A stretch of DNA of 10,629 nucleotides from a virus. Its lineage: Duplodnaviria > Heunggongvirae > Uroviricota > Caudoviricetes. The notes beneath the pieces were generated by a model, which saw only the letters and a list, made by a program, of their open reading frames with translations, was not told the DNA's origin and searched no databases. Shown piece after piece: positions 381 through 8,368 of the stretch (the stretch's first letter is position 1; every line of letters begins with the position of its first letter). The DNA lies in the IMG/VR virus record IMGVR_UViG_2531839127_000027. One strand, given 5' to 3'. The position numbers and the translations under genes were made by a program.

Positions 381-410
381 AACTCTTTAAGAAATATCAA
401 AGGGGGAATT

Positions 411-599
411 GTGTTAAGCACAGATCGCTTTATACGTGAAAAAGAATGTCAGCAACTTACAGGCCTGAGCCGTTCATGTCGGTACCGCCTGGAAAAAACC
501 GGACAATTCCCATCACGGCGTAAGCTCGGCGGTCGTTCCGTTGGCTGGTCTTTATCCGAAGTTCTGGCATGGAAGGAAAGCTGCGAGGCAGTTCACTAA
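411..599 (+). CDS. alpA: AlpA/Vis-family phage transcriptional regulator / excisionase-like protein (63 aa from GTG 411)
   Basis: Translation ...DRFIREKECQQLTGLSRSCRYRLEKTGQFPSRRKLGGRSVGWSLSEVLAWKE matches the AlpA family HTH pattern. GTG at 411 follows AGGGGGAA with 4-nt spacing. The listed ORF runs from 243, but the upstream 56 codons look like non-coding leader. Confidence 0.8.
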   Translation: MLSTDRFIREKECQQLTGLSRSCRYRLEKTGQFPSRRKLGGRSVGWSLSEVLAWKESCEAVH

Positions 600-1013
600 T
601 CAGGCTGGCGGCACACAGCCGCCACCCATCCACTAATACAGAGATCTAACCATGAATACTGGATATTCTCCCGAACAAGGGCGGGGCTTCGTTCGTCCTG
701 AAAAACAGAATCTGCAAAATTTTGCCGAAATTATTCCGGTTATTTCCGGCCTTACTGGCGGGAGTGAAACCAATATTGTTAACGCCAGAGCGTTGCAGAT
801 GTTTGATGATAAAAAGGGAGTAAATTTAACTTACACCCCTGACGGCAATCAGAATATGAGCATTATCTCTGAGTCAGGTTTCTACAAACTAATAAAAACA
901 AAAAGCGCCCCGTTGCCGGAGCGCCTTTGTGAACAATTAACCTACTGCGCAAAAAATGAATCTGAGCAGTGGGATTATATCAACCGTGTGGCGAAGCGCC
1001 ACAATTGCCGGAT

Positions 1014-1048
1014 AACAGGCAAAACAAAGGCCACCCGCTACGGTGGCC
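1014..1048 (-). terminator. Candidate rho-independent terminator on the minus strand
   Basis: Perfect 7-bp stem GGCCACC (1029-1035) / GGTGGCC (1042-1048) with 6-nt loop. On the minus strand it is followed by a T-rich tract (complement of aacaggcaaaacaaa, 1014-1028). Confidence 0.35.
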
Positions 1049-1127
1049 CCTCGACACAAGCTACACGTTATCCCCAACGCATGAGCATCACCAACAATGC
1101 CACATTTGCGGCTGGTGGGCAATGTGA

Positions 1128-1316
1128 TCAGTCAGATTTGGTTCGTTCCAAGGTTTGCAACGAGAGCTTTTTCCTGTGCTCTTTAAGGAATTTCTCAAGA
1201 GCAAAAGCACATGGCGCGAATCTTTCTGATTCATGCTCTATCTTTCTGCGCCGTCTTTTCCGTGCCGGTGATAATGTTTTGGTCAATTCTTTATCGGTCA
1301 TTGTGTTGTCCTGCAT
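1128..1316 (-). CDS. Possible small basic protein (about 57-62 aa), downstream of the repressor candidate on the minus strand
   Basis: ORF MQDNTMTDKELTKTLSPARKRRRRKIEHESERF...; internal Met (MTDKEL) has an AGGA 8 nt upstream. Hydrophilic, plausible composition. No recognisable family. Confidence 0.25.
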   Translation of the reverse strand: MQDNTMTDKELTKTLSPARKRRRRKIEHESERFAPCAFALEKFLKEHRKKLSLQTLERTKSD

Positions 1317-1358
1317 AGCAATGCGCCGTAATACCTTACACCACGGCGCTGATGGTGA

Positions 1359-1664
1359 TTACTCTGGTTCTTTGGTCTTGCGACGCTGGAGTTCTTCGCG
1401 TGCAACGGTGACAAGCTGCCCGATTTCTTCCGCTGCTTTGATGCCGATTTGTTCGACCTTAGCCAGGGCATCCAGTGACGACACAAGGGGATTTTCTCCG
1501 CTGCCTTCTGCTTGGCGGCGGGCTATTTCTCCGCGCATGGCGGTTACGATAAATCCGGCATTGCTTTCGCCGTCCAGCTTAACGGATTCCATCCCTTGCA
1601 TAACATCTAGTGGGACTCTGACAGTTGTCAGTTGTGATTTTGCGTTTTTGTTAGCCGTTGCCAT
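1359..1664 (-). CDS. Putative ribbon-helix-helix (CopG/Arc-like) transcriptional repressor, 101 aa
   Basis: ATG at 1664 preceded on the minus strand by GGAG with 8-nt spacing. N-terminus QLTTVRVPLDVMQGMESVKL...SNAGFIVTAMRGEIARRQ fits a beta-strand/helix/helix RHH pattern. Divergent from the replication operon across an operator-bearing promoter region. Confidence 0.55.
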   Translation of the reverse strand: MATANKNAKSQLTTVRVPLDVMQGMESVKLDGESNAGFIVTAMRGEIARRQAEGSGENPLVSSLDALAKVEQIGIKAAEEIGQLVTVAREELQRRKTKEPE

Positions 1665-1685
1665 TTCTGAAACTCCTAATCATCG

Positions 1686-1763
1686 GTGTGTTTCAGTATA
1701 CACAAAAAAAGAAATACAAAAAGCCTTGACGTGTGTTTCATGCGCTCATAACATGAAACACAC
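1686..1763. promoter_or_regulatory. Operator region: perfect 12-bp inverted repeat GTGTGTTTCATG (1731-1742) / CATGAAACACAC (1752-1763) plus a third half-site GTGTGTTTCA (1686-1695)
   Basis: Read directly. The inverted repeat overlaps the spacer and -10 of the rightward promoter. The third half-site lies 45 bp upstream, next to a TATACT -10-like hexamer on the minus strand (complement of 1695-1700). Confidence 0.55.
1726..1754 (+). promoter_or_regulatory. Candidate sigma70 promoter for the rightward replication operon (TTGACG, 17-bp spacer, TAACAT)
   Basis: TTGACG at 1726-1731 and TAACAT at 1749-1754; about 100 bp upstream of the first operon ORF. Confidence 0.45.
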
Positions 1764-1861
1764 CAAAAGAATTGTTGAAATACAAAGAGCAACGCCCCGC
1801 AGTGCCGGAAACACATACGGGGCGTCTAACCACCAACGATAGCAAGATTATCGAGGCTGCT

Positions 1862-2068
1862 ATGAGAAATCATACCATACACCCGCAAGGGCGGGACTCG
1901 CACAACCTGAATAAATACATCTGGCGTTTTATCGCCCTGAGTACGGCACAACCGCGCGTGATTACCATTGAGGCCACCAGCGAACAGGAAGCCCGTCAGC
2001 AATCACCGGCTGGCTGCGTGATGGTATTCGCCGCCCGTATTCGTCAGGGGGTGCACCATGTGCAATAA
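1862..2068 (+). CDS. Small hypothetical protein (68 aa from ATG 1862); weak resemblance to Icd-like host cell division inhibitor family
   Basis: Listed ORF starts at 1772 (TTG, no RBS); the internal ATG at 1862 follows GAGG. Motifs YIWRFIAL...FAARIRQG recall Icd-like proteins from memory only. Confidence 0.45.
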   Translation: MRNHTIHPQGRDSHNLNKYIWRFIALSTAQPRVITIEATSEQEARQQSPAGCVMVFAARIRQGVHHVQ

Positions 2069-2297
2069 CACCCGTCCGGACGCAGCCGCCGAAGCAATCA
2101 AAACACTGATTGATGCGCTGATTGATATTTCATGCACGGCAGCAACCGCAGAAAAACACATTACCAGAGAGACGGAATATACAGGGGCAATAATCCCCCA
2201 TTCGCTGGCATACGCACAGATTACCGCTGATATGGCACTGAATGAGGCTAAAGCCATCCTGATTGCTGATTGTGAAAATGGGGGGGGTTATGCGTGA
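2058..2297 (+). CDS. Small hypothetical protein (79 aa)
   Basis: ATG 2058 preceded by AGGGGG; overlaps neighbours by a few codons, as in a translationally coupled operon. Confidence 0.45.
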   Translation: MCNNTRPDAAAEAIKTLIDALIDISCTAATAEKHITRETEYTGAIIPHSLAYAQITADMALNEAKAILIADCENGGGYA

Positions 2298-2523
2298 TGA
2301 TCGTTTTAATGCCCTGAAACAGGAATTTGATGGCGCACAGGAAGATACAGATATTGCGCTGTTATGTGTTGCTGACATGGTAAAAGCTGCATGTTTTTTA
2401 CTGGAAACCGCCGAACATTCAGGAACGGGTAGCGATATTCTCAATATTGCGTCGGACTATGCGGAATATGTGGCAGAGGCACGTTACAGAAGAAAATTAC
2501 CGGAGGATGTAAGCCATGCATAA
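2290..2523 (+). CDS. Small acidic hypothetical protein (about 77 aa; ORF track start 2263, preferred start 2290)
   Basis: ATG 2290 preceded by GGGGGGG; same strand and tight spacing with neighbours. Confidence 0.45.
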   Translation: MRDDRFNALKQEFDGAQEDTDIALLCVADMVKAACFLLETAEHSGTGSDILNIASDYAEYVAEARYRRKLPEDVSHA

Positions 2524-2716
2524 TCATGAATCGCACTTACCTGTCGTGCTGAATGTGCCGTCAGATTATACGGGGCGCGTTTTGATATTCCTGGATAAAG
2601 GGAAAGTGAAATCACAATGCCGTCTTAGAAATAATGAGGTTGTTGGTTCTCTGGCTTTTTTTTCTGAAGCCTGTATTCGTGCCGGAATAAAATCGGAATC
2701 ACTGACAGGAAAATAA
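2516..2716 (+). CDS. Small hypothetical protein (66 aa)
   Basis: ATG 2516 preceded by GGAGGA; overlaps the upstream ORF stop. Confidence 0.4.
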   Translation: MHNHESHLPVVLNVPSDYTGRVLIFLDKGKVKSQCRLRNNEVVGSLAFFSEACIRAGIKSESLTGK

Positions 2717-2720
2717 AACC

Positions 2721-3008
2721 ATGAAAAAGAAAATTTCTGGCTTTACTGCCAGCGGCCCCGCTCGGCCTGAAATCCGCCCCGGCGATATTTTCCGGGATAA
2801 CTACGGCGGCACGATAACGATAAAAGACGTGGAAGAACGGCGCATCACCTACCGTCGTGAAGGCTACGACTATGACTGCGTGATGCCTGTTTATCAGTTC
2901 CGGCGTGATTTTAAGCTGGTGGGCCATCGTAAAGCCGTAAATCAGAAACGTGCAGCAAGCTATATCCGCAAAATCCGTGAAATGCTGGTCGCAGGGGGTA
3001 AGAAATGA
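2721..3008 (+). CDS. Small hypothetical protein (95 aa), translationally coupled to the primase gene
   Basis: ATG 2721 preceded by AGGAAA; stop overlaps the primase start (ATGA at 3005-3008). Confidence 0.5.
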   Translation: MKKKISGFTASGPARPEIRPGDIFRDNYGGTITIKDVEERRITYRREGYDYDCVMPVYQFRRDFKLVGHRKAVNQKRAASYIRKIREMLVAGGKK

Positions 3009-4753
3009 AACTGGCACCGAACGTAAAAAAACAACCACGCGGAATAAAGCACAAAGAAACAGAGGTAATTATTTTCGCGGGTAGTGATGCGTGGGCACAT
3101 GCAAAACAGTGGCAGGAACAGGACGGCCCCGCATCCGGCGATAATGTGCCGCCTGTGTGGCTTGGGCCAAATCAGCTTGCTGAACTTGATGCGCTGAAAA
3201 TTGTTCCGGATGGAAAAAAACGCGTAAGGCTGTACCAGGCCGGAGAACTGGATTTAGTGGAGATCAAAAAGATTGGTCAGAAGCTGGCGGCGGCAGGCGT
3301 ACAGGACGCAAATTTTTACCCCGAAGGAATGCACCACCACGAGCGGCAGAACTGGCGGCGCTATCTGAGTGCTGAGTGTGAAAATATTGCCGCAGGGCTT
3401 ACCATGCCGGAACAGAAAAAAGCACAACTTTCACAGATGGCAGACAGTGAACGGGCACAGCTTCTTGCTTCCCGCTTTGATGGTGTCTGCGTCCATGCCG
3501 AAAGTGAAATCGTTCACGTATGGCGCGGCGGGGTATGGTGTCCGGTCAGCACAATGGAACTTAGCCGCGAAATGGTGGCGATCTATTCAGAGCACAGGGC
3601 CACTTTCAGCAAGCGCGTAATCAATAACGCCGTGGAAGCGTTAAAAGTTATTGCCGAACCAATGGGCGAGCCGTCCGGCGATTTGCTGCCGTTCGCCAAT
3701 GGTGCGCTTGACCTGAAAACGGGGGAATTTTCCCCGCACACGCCGGAGAACTGGATCACCACGCACAACGGCATTGAGTACACGCTACCAGCACCAGGGG
3801 AAAACATCCGCGATAACGCGCCAAACTTTCATAAATGGCTTGAGCACGCAGCCGGAAAAGACCCGCGCAAGATGATGCGTATATGTGCCGCGCTGTACAT
3901 GATTATGGCGAACCGGTACGACTGGCAGATGTTTATTGAGGCCACCGGAGACGGCGGTAGCGGTAAAAGTACATTCACACACATAGCCAGCCTTCTGGCA
4001 GGGAAACAGAACACGGTAAGCGCTGAAATGACATCGCTTGATGATGCTGGTGGACGTGCGCAGGTTGTCGGGAGTCGTCTTATCGTCCTGGCTGACCAGC
4101 CGAAATATACAGGCGAAGGAACGGGCATCAAGAAAATCACAGGCGGCGACCCCGTGGAAATTAACCCGAAATATGAAAAGCGTTTCACGGCGGTAATCAG
4201 GGCGGTGGTGCTGGCGACCAACAACAACCCGATGATATTCACCGAACGGGCCGGAGGGGTGGCACGTCGTCGCGTGATTTTCCGTTTCGACAATATCGTC
4301 AGTGAGGCCGAAAAAGACAGGGAGCTACCGGAAAAGATTGCGGCTGAAATCCCCGTTATTATCCGCCGATTGCTGGCGAACTTTACCGACCCTGAGAAGG
4401 CACGGGCTTTACTACTGGAACAGCGTGACGGTGATGAAGCACTGGCGATAAAGCAGCAAACGGATCCAGTTATTGAGTTTTGCCAGTTCCTGAATTTTCT
4501 GGAGGAAGCGCGTGGCCTGATGATGGGCGGCGGTGGTGATTCCGTGAAGTACACAACCAGGAACAGCCTTTACCGTGTCTATCTGGCGTTTATGGCTTAC
4601 GCAGGCAGGACCAAACCGCTGAACGTAAATGACTTTGGCAAGGCTATGAAGCCCGCCGCGAAAGTTTACGGACATGAATATATTACGCGAAAAGTTAAGG
4701 GGGTAACGCAGACTAACGCAATAACAACAGACGATTGCGAAGCGTTTTTATAA
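3005..4753 (+). CDS. Replication protein: SF3/D5-type NTPase primase-helicase (P4 alpha-like C-terminal region), 582 aa
   Basis: Walker A GDGGSGKST (encoded near 3949-3975), a hydrophobic strand ending in aspartate (LIVLAD) that could be a Walker B, and a later VVLATNNNP stretch. GGGGG RBS before ATG 3005. Followed by an iteron cluster. Confidence 0.85.
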   Translation: MKLAPNVKKQPRGIKHKETEVIIFAGSDAWAHAKQWQEQDGPASGDNVPPVWLGPNQLAELDALKIVPDGKKRVRLYQAGELDLVEIKKIGQKLAAAGVQDANFYPEGMHHHERQNWRRYLSAECENIAAGLTMPEQKKAQLSQMADSERAQLLASRFDGVCVHAESEIVHVWRGGVWCPVSTMELSREMVAIYSEHRATFSKRVINNAVEALKVIAEPMGEPSGDLLPFANGALDLKTGEFSPHTPENWITTHNGIEYTLPAPGENIRDNAPNFHKWLEHAAGKDPRKMMRICAALYMIMANRYDWQMFIEATGDGGSGKSTFTHIASLLAGKQNTVSAEMTSLDDAGGRAQVVGSRLIVLADQPKYTGEGTGIKKITGGDPVEINPKYEKRFTAVIRAVVLATNNNPMIFTERAGGVARRRVIFRFDNIVSEAEKDRELPEKIAAEIPVIIRRLLANFTDPEKARALLLEQRDGDEALAIKQQTDPVIEFCQFLNFLEEARGLMMGGGGDSVKYTTRNSLYRVYLAFMAYAGRTKPLNVNDFGKAMKPAAKVYGHEYITRKVKGVTQTNAITTDDCEAFL

Positions 4754-4766
4754 TTTTTTGCAATGG

Positions 4767-4994
4767 CTGTCTACCCTGTCTACCTGGGTAAAGGAAAATA
4801 CATTTAATTCAGTATATTAACTTAGGTAGACAGCCTTTTTTCACTATCTACCTACTATCTACCCTCTCTACCTGATTTTACCTGAATCAGACAGGGAGGT
4901 AGATACGGGGTAGATAGTGGATAAAAGCACTCTACCCCGATGAAAGCCGCGCCATTACTGGCATTGGGGCCAGCAAGGTAGATAAGGTAGACAA
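4767..4994. repeat. Iteron cluster, candidate origin of replication: 11 copies of TCTACC / GGTAGA in both orientations around an AT-rich core (4791-4823)
   Basis: Read directly: TCTACC at 4770, 4779, 4847, 4857, 4867, 4931; GGTAGA at 4825, 4898, 4909, 4977, 4987. Immediately downstream of the primase-helicase gene. Confidence 0.55.
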
Positions 4995-5734: not shown

Positions 5735-5757
5735 AGCCGGAACAATCCGGCTTTTTT
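5735..5757 (+). terminator. Rho-independent terminator after ssb
   Basis: Stem AGCCGG (5735-5740) / CCGGCT (5747-5752), loop AACAAT, then a T6 run (5752-5757). Confidence 0.6.
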
Positions 5758-5832
5758 ACGGGTCCTCCCGATGGAGTGGCCTTGCCACGGGGCGGGAGCG
5801 GCGCGGAAAAAGGCTGGTTTTTGCATTTTCAT
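5752..5832 (+). repeat. Copy 1 of an 81-bp duplicated segment (77/81 identical to 8288-8368), starting at the terminator T-tract
   Basis: Read directly; contains ACGGGGCGGGAGCGGCGCGG, which resembles the lambda cos-junction sequence ACGGGGCGGCGACCTCGCGG as recalled. Confidence 0.7.
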
Positions 5833-8269: not shown

Positions 8270-8293
8270 GGGCGGCGACAGCCGCCTTTTTTT
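8270..8293 (+). terminator. Hairpin plus T7 tract after the capsid gene; stem sequence matches lambda cosN as recalled
   Basis: GGGCGGCGAC at 8270-8279 matches the first 10 nt of the lambda cosN overhang GGGCGGCGACCT (from memory). Stem GGCGGC (8271-8276) / GCCGCC (8281-8286), loop GACA, T7 at 8287-8293. Confidence 0.5.
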
Positions 8294-8368
8294 ACGGGTC
8301 CTCCCGGTGTGGTGTCCTTGCCACGGGGCGGGAGCGGCGCGGAAAAAGGCTGGTTTTTGCATTTTCAT
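8288..8368 (+). repeat. Copy 2 of the 81-bp duplicated segment (see 5752-5832)
   Basis: 77/81 identity; all four mismatches fall in one 9-mer (ATGGAGTGG vs GTGTGGTGT). Confidence 0.7.

Follow-up and report, generated by a model that had tools for sequence, protein, structure and literature searches.

A decayed antirepressor gene continuing in frame into a long open reading frame kept open antisense to a ylcI cassette in an AlpA-type satellite island of Escherichia coli

What is encoded by a reading frame that stays open for 396 codons although it starts like an antirepressor gene and then runs through genes of the opposite strand? This question is raised by the virus record IMGVR_UViG_2531839127_000027 (Caudoviricetes) of IMG/VR, a stretch of 10,629 nucleotides (nt), which is referred to here as the window. 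The window is an AlpA-type satellite island of Escherichia coli, similar to phage-inducible chromosomal islands (PICIs). The open reading frame (ORF) in question begins with an ATG on the plus strand, occupies positions 652-1842 between alpA and an Icd-like gene, and consists of an antirepressor remnant (652-894) joined in frame to a long bridging frame (895-1842). A preliminary description of this DNA, made from the letters alone, had listed the same 396-codon ORF, and the ORF list and six-frame stop counts agree with it: the frame is free of stops from 634 to 1840, and the other five frames carry 17-31 stops in positions 600-2100. The exact 396-residue product is already present in the protein database as a 'hypothetical protein' with 51 members.

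By alignment, codons 1-81 are the remnant of two antirepressor types, 48 codons of an AntA/AntB type followed by 33 codons of a Bro-N type. The former part (652-797, plus strand; residues 1-48) was recognized from its DNA match to the related locus L004 of strain JCKP02. Window positions 400-797, which cover alpA and the first 48 antA codons, are 94% identical to positions 1301-1698 of L004, where an intact AntA/AntB gene for 266 residues is located at 1553-2353 (Pfam AntA, E 2.3e-23); residues 1-48 of the ORF are 85% identical to the N-terminus of that protein (BLASTP). The latter part (790-894, plus strand; residues ~46-81, including ISESGFYKLI) is an internal fragment, 92.6% identical to positions 1501-1608 of L005, which lie in the middle of a Bro-N gene (residues 62-98). 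This gene, of 192 residues, is intact in L005 and L009 (strains SCU-125 and 042; Pfam Bro-N, E 6.4e-20), and BLASTP aligned residues 42-89 of the ORF with residues 57-107 of the L005 protein at 71% identity. The intact antirepressor genes of the relatives begin where the ORF of the window begins, 53 nt past the alpA stop. The preliminary description had pointed to ISESGFYKLI as a possible Bro-N-like motif and had offered, as one explanation, a decayed antirepressor gene without its 3' end. Both suggestions hold, the second one for codons 1-81: the intact counterparts it had proposed to look for in related islands exist in both types, and the N-terminal region has the family similarity it had proposed to check.

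The two parts meet at 790-797, within a GCGTT microhomology. The second junction, at 894/895, corresponds to L005 1608|2054: the alignment of window positions 894-1388 resumes at L005 2053, and L005 1609-2053 (445 nt, including the stop codon) is missing from the window. This deletion took the 3' end of the Bro-N gene together with the stop codon, and the DNA beyond it through an in-frame TAA (L005 2051-2053). In L005 this TAA is the boundary of the long open frame, and the right end of the deletion falls exactly past it. Among 5426 complete E. coli genomes, 119 cover at least 80% of window positions 640-960, which span both junctions, and are counted as carriers of this remnant. A second, independent class of antirepressor deletions (L006, L025, and L109) retains about 17 codons, followed by the terminator, and is also an in-frame fusion.

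Similarity of the ORF to antirepressor profiles is confined to a stretch of about 30-40 residues. The ORF obtains 16.6 bits with Pfam Bro-N (PF02498; cut-off 25.6), its residues 51-91 covering profile positions 36-85 only, and thus does not contain a complete domain above the gathering threshold; the intact L005 protein obtains 72 bits over positions 2-96 of this domain of about 96 residues. PHROG anti-repressor families match residues 49-90 with E-values of 5e-5 to 1e-2. The Pfam scan of the ORF gave no match to AntA (PF08346), so that it is not an AntA/AntB family member, and its alignment to L004 ends at residue 48, as the AntA domain (residues 43-117 in the intact relative) begins. Since neither the AntA nor the Bro-N domain is complete, a functional antirepressor cannot be made from this ORF. 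The remnant shares its position and start codon with antirepressors of PICIs and phages (PF02498, PF08346), but of the AntA/AntB type it keeps only a 48-codon leader, and of the Bro-N type only 33 codons. Taken alone, such a stump is ordinary.

The rest of the ORF is not. Its ~315 codons cross two minus-strand terminators, run antisense through a YlcI/YnfO-family gene (ylcI; 1359-1664, minus strand) and a gene for a small basic protein (1128-1301, minus strand), and traverse the divergent icd promoter. A YlcI-based search yielded a comparative set with 7 loci from other genera and 160 from metagenomes and IMG/VR, and with 136 distinct regions. In 127 of these 136 regions, the plus-strand frame whose third codon positions fall on those of ylcI has no stop along the entire ylcI gene. 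Of the nine other regions, five run into a contig end, which leaves L012, L032, L034, and L141 as true exceptions. The open length has a median of 357 codons (range 112-819), as compared to 29 and 54 codons for the other two plus-strand frames. The frame mostly begins at the stop of the preceding plus-strand gene, alpA or an antirepressor, and mostly ends in frame at the icd stop. Namely, in 90 of 136 regions it reaches the icd-like gene in frame, extending 380 nt or more beyond the ylcI start, and in 26 it stops about 20 nt short of the icd ATG, like in the window. It runs from the antirepressor stop to the icd-like gene over 430 residues in L003 and L008, 528 in L004, and 403 in L007. Among these loci are some from Photorhabdus, Yersinia, Pantoea, and Xenorhabdus, in which YlcI is 50-74% identical and the flanking DNA cannot be aligned with the window. 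On inspection of individual sequences, uncompensated 1-nt indels coincided with broken frames, and L139 carried a compensated +1/-13 pair; indels in the non-overlapping stretches were too few for statistics on their length. Dinucleotide shuffles of the window's three gene-free stretches of the frame left all three open with a probability of ~2e-3, to which the ylcI overlap contributes a further factor of about 0.25. Chance openness is ruled out because the frame is conserved in relatives. The other explanation given in the preliminary description, that the frame is maintained by lying antisense to minus-strand genes, is correct in a stronger sense than was meant: selection keeps the frame open across genera and also outside the minus-strand genes.

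Codon choice in ylcI reflects this constraint. The phase geometry, which was checked, allows a plus-strand stop only at NNT|CAN (a His or Gln codon after a T-ending codon) or NNY|TAN (a Tyr or stop codon after a codon ending in T or C). In 13 ylcI representatives, no pair of which exceeded 80% nucleotide identity, NNT|CAN was used in 1 of 81 cases (background 0.23; binomial P about 2e-8) and NNY|TAN in 0 of 14 (background 0.49; P about 8e-5), values that overstate independence, given that the loci are related, and that stand beside synonymous sites which look saturated between genera. The Pro codon ahead of the conserved His19 was CCC in 29 cases, CCG in 17, CCA in 17, and CCT in one; the sole CCT among the first 14 loci belongs to L012, whose plus-strand frame is broken. 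Other genes of the same island served as controls and displayed no avoidance (29/156 and 37/69), and the equivalent antisense frames of these genes hold 1-21 stops. The small gene follows the same pattern as ylcI (0/132 and 0/43), with many of its contexts being unable to vary. An analytic calculation with island codon usage gave ~0.25 for the chance openness of one ylcI and 10^-12 for the product over 20 open representatives. The GenBank phage collection, searched with ylcI at the level of distant DNA and of protein, returned no match and hence no phage control set; for this reason, ynfO of E. coli K-12, a family member from a lambdoid prophage, was used as a single control. Its antisense frame is open, ending within about 10 codons of the gene.

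The peptide itself is not constrained in sequence. Variable columns of the long frame are distributed over the three codon positions as 18/22/19 in 895-1127 and 29/24/31 in 1665-1861, that is, without periodicity. In the ylcI overlap they number 34/42/86, with the most at the shared third position and the fewest at the second position of ylcI, and YlcI is better conserved than the long-frame peptide over the same nucleotides in 75 of 91 pairs. The plus-strand peptide is whatever DNA intervenes: in terminators it spells 'KTKSAPLPER' or 'KEKDSTANATLW', and elsewhere it comes from antisense genes, duplications, and antirepressor stumps. Because codon periodicity is absent outside the overlaps, YlcI is more conserved than the plus-strand peptide, and the content is arbitrary, we conclude that openness is selected and the sequence is not. 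Selection is thus seen on both strands, namely purifying selection on YlcI and the small protein, and selection against stops only in the plus-strand frame. The long frame is an unusual and statistically solid evolutionary signal.

The genes that it overlaps form a cassette. YlcI (101 residues; annotated by the Prokaryotic Genome Annotation Pipeline, PGAP) belongs to family NF041551 (E 1.6e-17), matching the 42-residue YlcI_YnfO_N domain at residues 9-50 with 63.2 bits (cut-off 30 bits), and its gene has a Shine-Dalgarno sequence, AGGAG, 9 nt upstream of the ATG. The protein is predicted to consist of an N-terminal domain resembling a ribbon-helix-helix (RHH) and of a long C-terminal helix; in the AlphaFold2 model (27-sequence alignment; predicted local distance difference test, pLDDT, 79.7) an extended N-terminus is followed by helices at 19-28 and 35-54 and a long one at 59-98. 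The small gene encodes 57 residues (phrog_21027, E 1.4e-14), is called by PGAP in L004, and shares third codon positions with the long frame. It was seen in 27 peptide and 32 DNA versions, all distinct, with in-frame indels and the conserved core ERFAPCAFALEKFLKEY. The possibility that it is spurious was rejected in view of these 27 conserved peptides. The preliminary description was right in noticing this gene and wrong about its start: the gene extends over 1128-1301 and not 1128-1316, since the conserved start is Met6 of the longer ORF. Past the small gene lies a first intrinsic terminator (1014-1051, minus strand) with a stem from 1051 to 1026 and the tail GTTTTGCC to ~1016, which was previously noted as a hairpin and T-tract at 1014-1048. 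In distant relatives, terminator-like hairpins occur after a plus-strand A-run at the equivalent place, where the plus-strand frame reads 'KEK...' peptides. A second intrinsic terminator (891-928, minus strand; stem from 928 to 901, T-rich tail) sits just past the antirepressor stop in intact loci; accordingly, window positions 894-950 match L004 2369-2425, beginning 16 nt past the antA stop. The unit of repressor, small protein, and terminator that had been proposed in the preliminary description thus exists as a cassette, with the word 'repressor' being deduced from a putative RHH fold together with repeats that resemble operators.

These repeats, GTGTGTTTCA, occur at 1686-1764 around the icd promoter, as direct copies at 1686-1695 and 1731-1740 and an inverted one at 1754-1764, and are regarded as putative operators. 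The promoter, of sigma-70-like sequence TTGACG-17-TAACAT (1726-1754, plus strand), lies inside the long frame and would serve the icd operon; its TTGAC is invariant across the alignment of five relatives, and the surrounding sequence differs by lineage. The whole arrangement at 1359-1764, in which a YlcI-like gene and the icd/replication operon diverge and GTGTGTTTCA repeats lie across the promoter, is suggestive of a repressor-operator pair. A role of YlcI as a repressor is plausible because the RHH-like model coincides with repeats over a divergent promoter, and the protein is a candidate in this sense. Farther downstream, alignment revealed a conserved icd-leader hairpin (1792-1825, plus strand). 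In the window lineage its loop contains one extra base (about 1805-1806), and for this reason the long frame is out of phase with icd and ends at the TAG at 1840-1842 (plus strand), 20 nt ahead of the icd ATG and before the Shine-Dalgarno sequence GAGG at 1853-1856. The hairpin (ACGCCCCG...CGGGGCGT) and the following CTAACCACCAAC (1792-1842) are kept in several genera, the long frame reading '..PLTTN..' there. A T-rich run follows this hairpin on the minus strand, where it may act as a terminator or insulator.

Three other accounts of the ORF were weighed. The first reading that the databases suggest is a functional long isoform of the Icd-like protein with a fast-evolving, perhaps disordered N-terminal extension, the window copy being frameshifted and in decay. 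NCBI names versions of 400-540 residues 'host cell division inhibitor Icd-like protein' (1490 database hits), 90 of 136 regions run in frame into icd, the starts have a Shine-Dalgarno sequence or overlap the preceding stop, and the 188-residue phrog_29966 carries an Icd part at its C-terminus. Nevertheless, we regard this account as unlikely. Substitutions outside the overlaps lack codon periodicity; the extension is made of the intervening DNA, including terminators, antisense genes, antirepressor stumps, and, in L158, a duplication within 805 residues; its length varies from 112 to 819 codons; no family match was found beyond the Icd/Ash part; and the frame stops before icd in 26 regions that represent at least four separate lineages (the E. 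coli window type, L010, L086, and L014). The NCBIfam scan of the 396-residue ORF gave no match to the Icd-like family NF033153, a C-terminal domain of ~48 residues, which in the homologous 528-residue frame of L004 is located at residues 480-523. Full-length homologues, which the preliminary description had named as an argument against its own view if conserved, do exist, in that 'Icd-like' proteins of 396-540 residues cover 98% of the ORF; they are the same kind of fusion, and what is conserved in them is openness and the DNA, not a protein.

The opposite account sees only a pseudogene, a decayed antirepressor that reads on through a stop-poor antisense frame with no selection on openness. 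The antirepressor remnant is real, stops depend on the context of Tyr, His, or Gln codons, so that one short gene stays open by chance in about a quarter of cases, and K-12 ynfO is open over its own length as well. However, openness reaches hundreds of codons past the genes, through non-homologous flanks and in distant genera, at loci too diverged to be recent copies of a single sequence (YlcI identity as low as 50%), and the frame antisense to K-12 ynfO ends within about 10 codons. Together with the stop-context avoidance, the control genes, and the shuffles of the gene-free stretches, this renders the account very improbable. Still less credible is the idea that the plus-strand ORF is the sole real gene and that ylcI and the small ORF are its shadows. 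It can refer to the fact that both strands are open and that gene callers often choose the long ORF. It conflicts with the conservative nature of YlcI changes, the higher conservation of YlcI than of the plus-strand peptide over the same bases, and the 34/42/86 distribution of variable columns. It also conflicts with the confidently predicted YlcI structure that resembles RHH domains, the Shine-Dalgarno sequence of ylcI and the terminators downstream, and the in-frame indels and conserved core of the small gene.

We therefore favour, as the probable explanation, a dead antirepressor stump fused in frame to a translated bridging frame that carries ribosomes from alpA or the antirepressor gene to the icd-replication operon. 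That the plus-strand long frame is translated is suggested by its start sites, which were surveyed in 91 distinct 5' architectures. In 14 of them, including Yersinia and a 'Pseudomonas lundensis' contig, the first ATG and the antA stop overlap over 8 nt (ccATGtgTAA); ATGA or TGATG overlaps were found in four; and in 18 the ATG is located 9-15 nt past the alpA stop, mostly with AGGGGAG or GGGGGAG ahead of it. In a further 19, including the window, the long frame uses the start codon of the antirepressor gene.

In EcCICFT073, AlpA is an activator of its own promoter and of genes further downstream (PMC6092414). In the proposed mechanism, transcription from the AlpA-autoactivated alpA promoter would read through toward icd, and ribosomes would stay on this transcript across the antisense stretch of ~1 kb. 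Continuous translation of the bridge might shield the transcript from Rho-dependent polarity and from hairpin formation, so that both ribosomes and transcription would arrive at icd and the replication genes, and the convergent transcription may interfere with the repressor-like cassette. The deletion in the window would have joined the start of the antirepressor gene to the bridge in phase by luck, or persisted only because of that fusion. A more far-reaching version is that the frame is kept open purely for ribosome transit over the antisense repressor cassette, with no functional product, and that AlpA transcription bypasses and silences YlcI, the sought repressor of Gram-negative PICIs; we put this forward tentatively, as possible rather than probable. 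No global repressor is known for these islands (PMC6092414).

Besides the relatedness of the loci used for the binomial tests, several observations weigh against the bridge. The long frame is broken in the four true exceptions. Loci of the L036 type have a minus-strand cargo gene between alpA and ylcI and hence no continuous bridge from alpA, the frame of Photorhabdus L010 ends 133 nt ahead of the next plus-strand gene, and Bro-N-type loci (L005 class) lack an ATG for about 190 nt after the frame opens, uncoupled from the Bro-N stop. Also, the Rho step is purely inferred.

Some loci of the comparative set deserve mention in their own right. In L036 and L133 (2096-2647, in window-like orientation), a variant common in E. 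coli, the place of the antirepressor and the small-gene region is taken by an AT-rich minus-strand gene for a membrane-protein-like product of about 180 residues; this gene is probably accessory or defence cargo. The long frame of L158 has 805 codons (1968-4385, in window-like orientation), starts 5 nt past the alpA stop, and crosses two antisense copies of the small-gene region, with a Phage_ASH domain at residues 663-753 before the Icd-like end. Locus L016 (JAWQUI010000011.1, titled Pseudomonas lundensis) encodes a YlcI 80% identical to that of Yersinia pekkanenii L011 and the same Icd-like end peptide, which points either to transfer across orders or to assembly contamination. The 'AlpA' antiterminator of P. 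aeruginosa (PMC9371919) was considered as a read-through mechanism and rejected, being a 21Q-like protein with an eight-helix fold and not of the ~60-residue Phage_AlpA type; the shared name is taken as a coincidence.

Several known systems resemble parts of this locus. The immunity I regions of P22 (mnt-arc-ant, with sar RNA) and P1 (c4-icd-ant) unite a similar cast, namely an antirepressor, a small RHH-type regulator (Arc/Mnt-like), icd, and antisense transcripts. In the window, gene order and orientation are different, and the antisense partner is a presumably translated frame instead of a small RNA. An Rfam scan of the whole window (E <= 1) detected no C4 (RF01695) or CI-type RNA, only spurious miRNA and lncRNA matches on an origin-like palindrome, and RNA-based immunity of the P1/P4 kind was dropped on this ground. 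The stl/str (rpr) region of Gram-positive PICIs likewise has a gene for a small DNA-binding protein divergent from the replication operon and repeats over the promoter (PMC6092414). The window differs from it in having a YlcI-like protein of putative RHH type, an AlpA activator, and a plus-strand frame that overlaps the repressor cassette.

Antisense overlapping pairs of E. coli (ano and candidates from enterohaemorrhagic strains; PMC9927249, PMC5960689) also consist of two opposite-strand frames that are both apparently maintained. Those are short embedded ORFs with proposed protein functions, whereas the long frame of the window encloses annotated genes, spans coding and non-coding DNA, and is conserved in its openness only. 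Translational coupling in operons, with protection from Rho polarity (PMC7858274), is comparable in that starts overlap or abut the preceding stop, as in the long frame, and in the proposed role of ribosomes on a read-through transcript. Unlike ordinary coupled genes, the long frame has no conserved product and is antisense to a regulatory cassette. Full-text literature searches gave no description of a conserved, sequence-unconstrained bridging frame overlapping a ylcI cassette. Bro-N and AntA antirepressors, Icd-like proteins, and YlcI/YnfO proteins are listed among accessory genes in PICI surveys (PMC13612085).

The ORF is not new to databases, in which long versions are filed as 'Icd-like protein' and the 396-residue product as hypothetical. 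Annotation of the locus is inconsistent: some records contain an 'Icd-like protein' of 400-540 residues, others a short icd and ylcI, and further ones add partial pseudogenes labelled as plus-strand 'hypothetical protein, missing C-terminus' (PGAP in L003, L005, L006, L008, and L009). The stump in the window is best annotated as an antirepressor pseudogene fused to the long frame. If the bridge interpretation is true, the locus would be a clear natural case in which selection preserves the openness of a reading frame for its own sake, with its peptide drifting freely, and the synonymous codon choice of two opposite-strand genes would be shaped by translation needs of the plus strand. It would also suggest how the inducible left arm of AlpA-type satellites (alpA, antirepressor) is connected with the replication operon beyond a divergent cassette, and it nominates the YlcI-like protein of putative RHH type with its operator-like repeats as a candidate for the missing repressor of Gram-negative PICIs.

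DNA identical to the window is located between abgR and smrA in E. coli strain CRE444, and the locus occurs in 1785 E. coli genomes. PGAP annotated this locus with int, alpA, the minus-strand YlcI/YnfO gene, an Icd-like gene, DUF4222, a DUF5906 primase, ssb, a fusion of ClpP protease and major capsid protein, and a DUF1441 protein; window positions 600-1358 were left without any gene. The island thus has the gene set of Gram-negative PICIs, comprising int, alpA, primase/replication, and packaging/capsid genes at a fixed site (abgR-smrA). The alpA gene (411-599, plus strand; PGAP in identical E. coli loci) encodes an AlpA-family regulator (Pfam Phage_AlpA, E 1.3e-17) and precedes the 396-codon ORF. 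The Icd-like gene (1862-2068, plus strand; PGAP; NF033153, E 1.4e-19) is where the long frame of relatives usually ends in frame, and further plus-strand genes follow it, with stops that overlap the next start.

At 603-627, immediately past the alpA stop, there is a GC-rich hairpin (GGCTGGCGGC acaca GCCGCCACCC) without a T-tract, which is kept in relatives with another downstream gene. A near-perfect palindrome of ~98 nt, composed of CTATCTACC-like iterons (4832-4929) and located directly past the primase gene, is probably the replication origin of the island. An 81-nt direct repeat, 95% identical, occurs after ssb (5752-5832) and after the protease/capsid fusion gene (8288-8368); its GC-rich hairpin-like core (GGGTCCTCCCG...CGGGAGCGGCGCGG) is followed by AAAAAGGCTGGTTTTTGCATTTTCAT, and it may be a repeated terminator/promoter cassette. 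Additionally, different plus-strand genes (AntA type, Bro-N type, and DUF4222) have in common a short N-terminal motif, roughly G-x-G-x-x-(R/H)-P-(E/K), with examples such as QGRGFVRPE, TGKGDARPV, and ASGPARPEI (window 652-720 and 2721-2790; L004, L005, L010, L015, L091, and L093), which could be a peptide signal or an element at the mRNA level.

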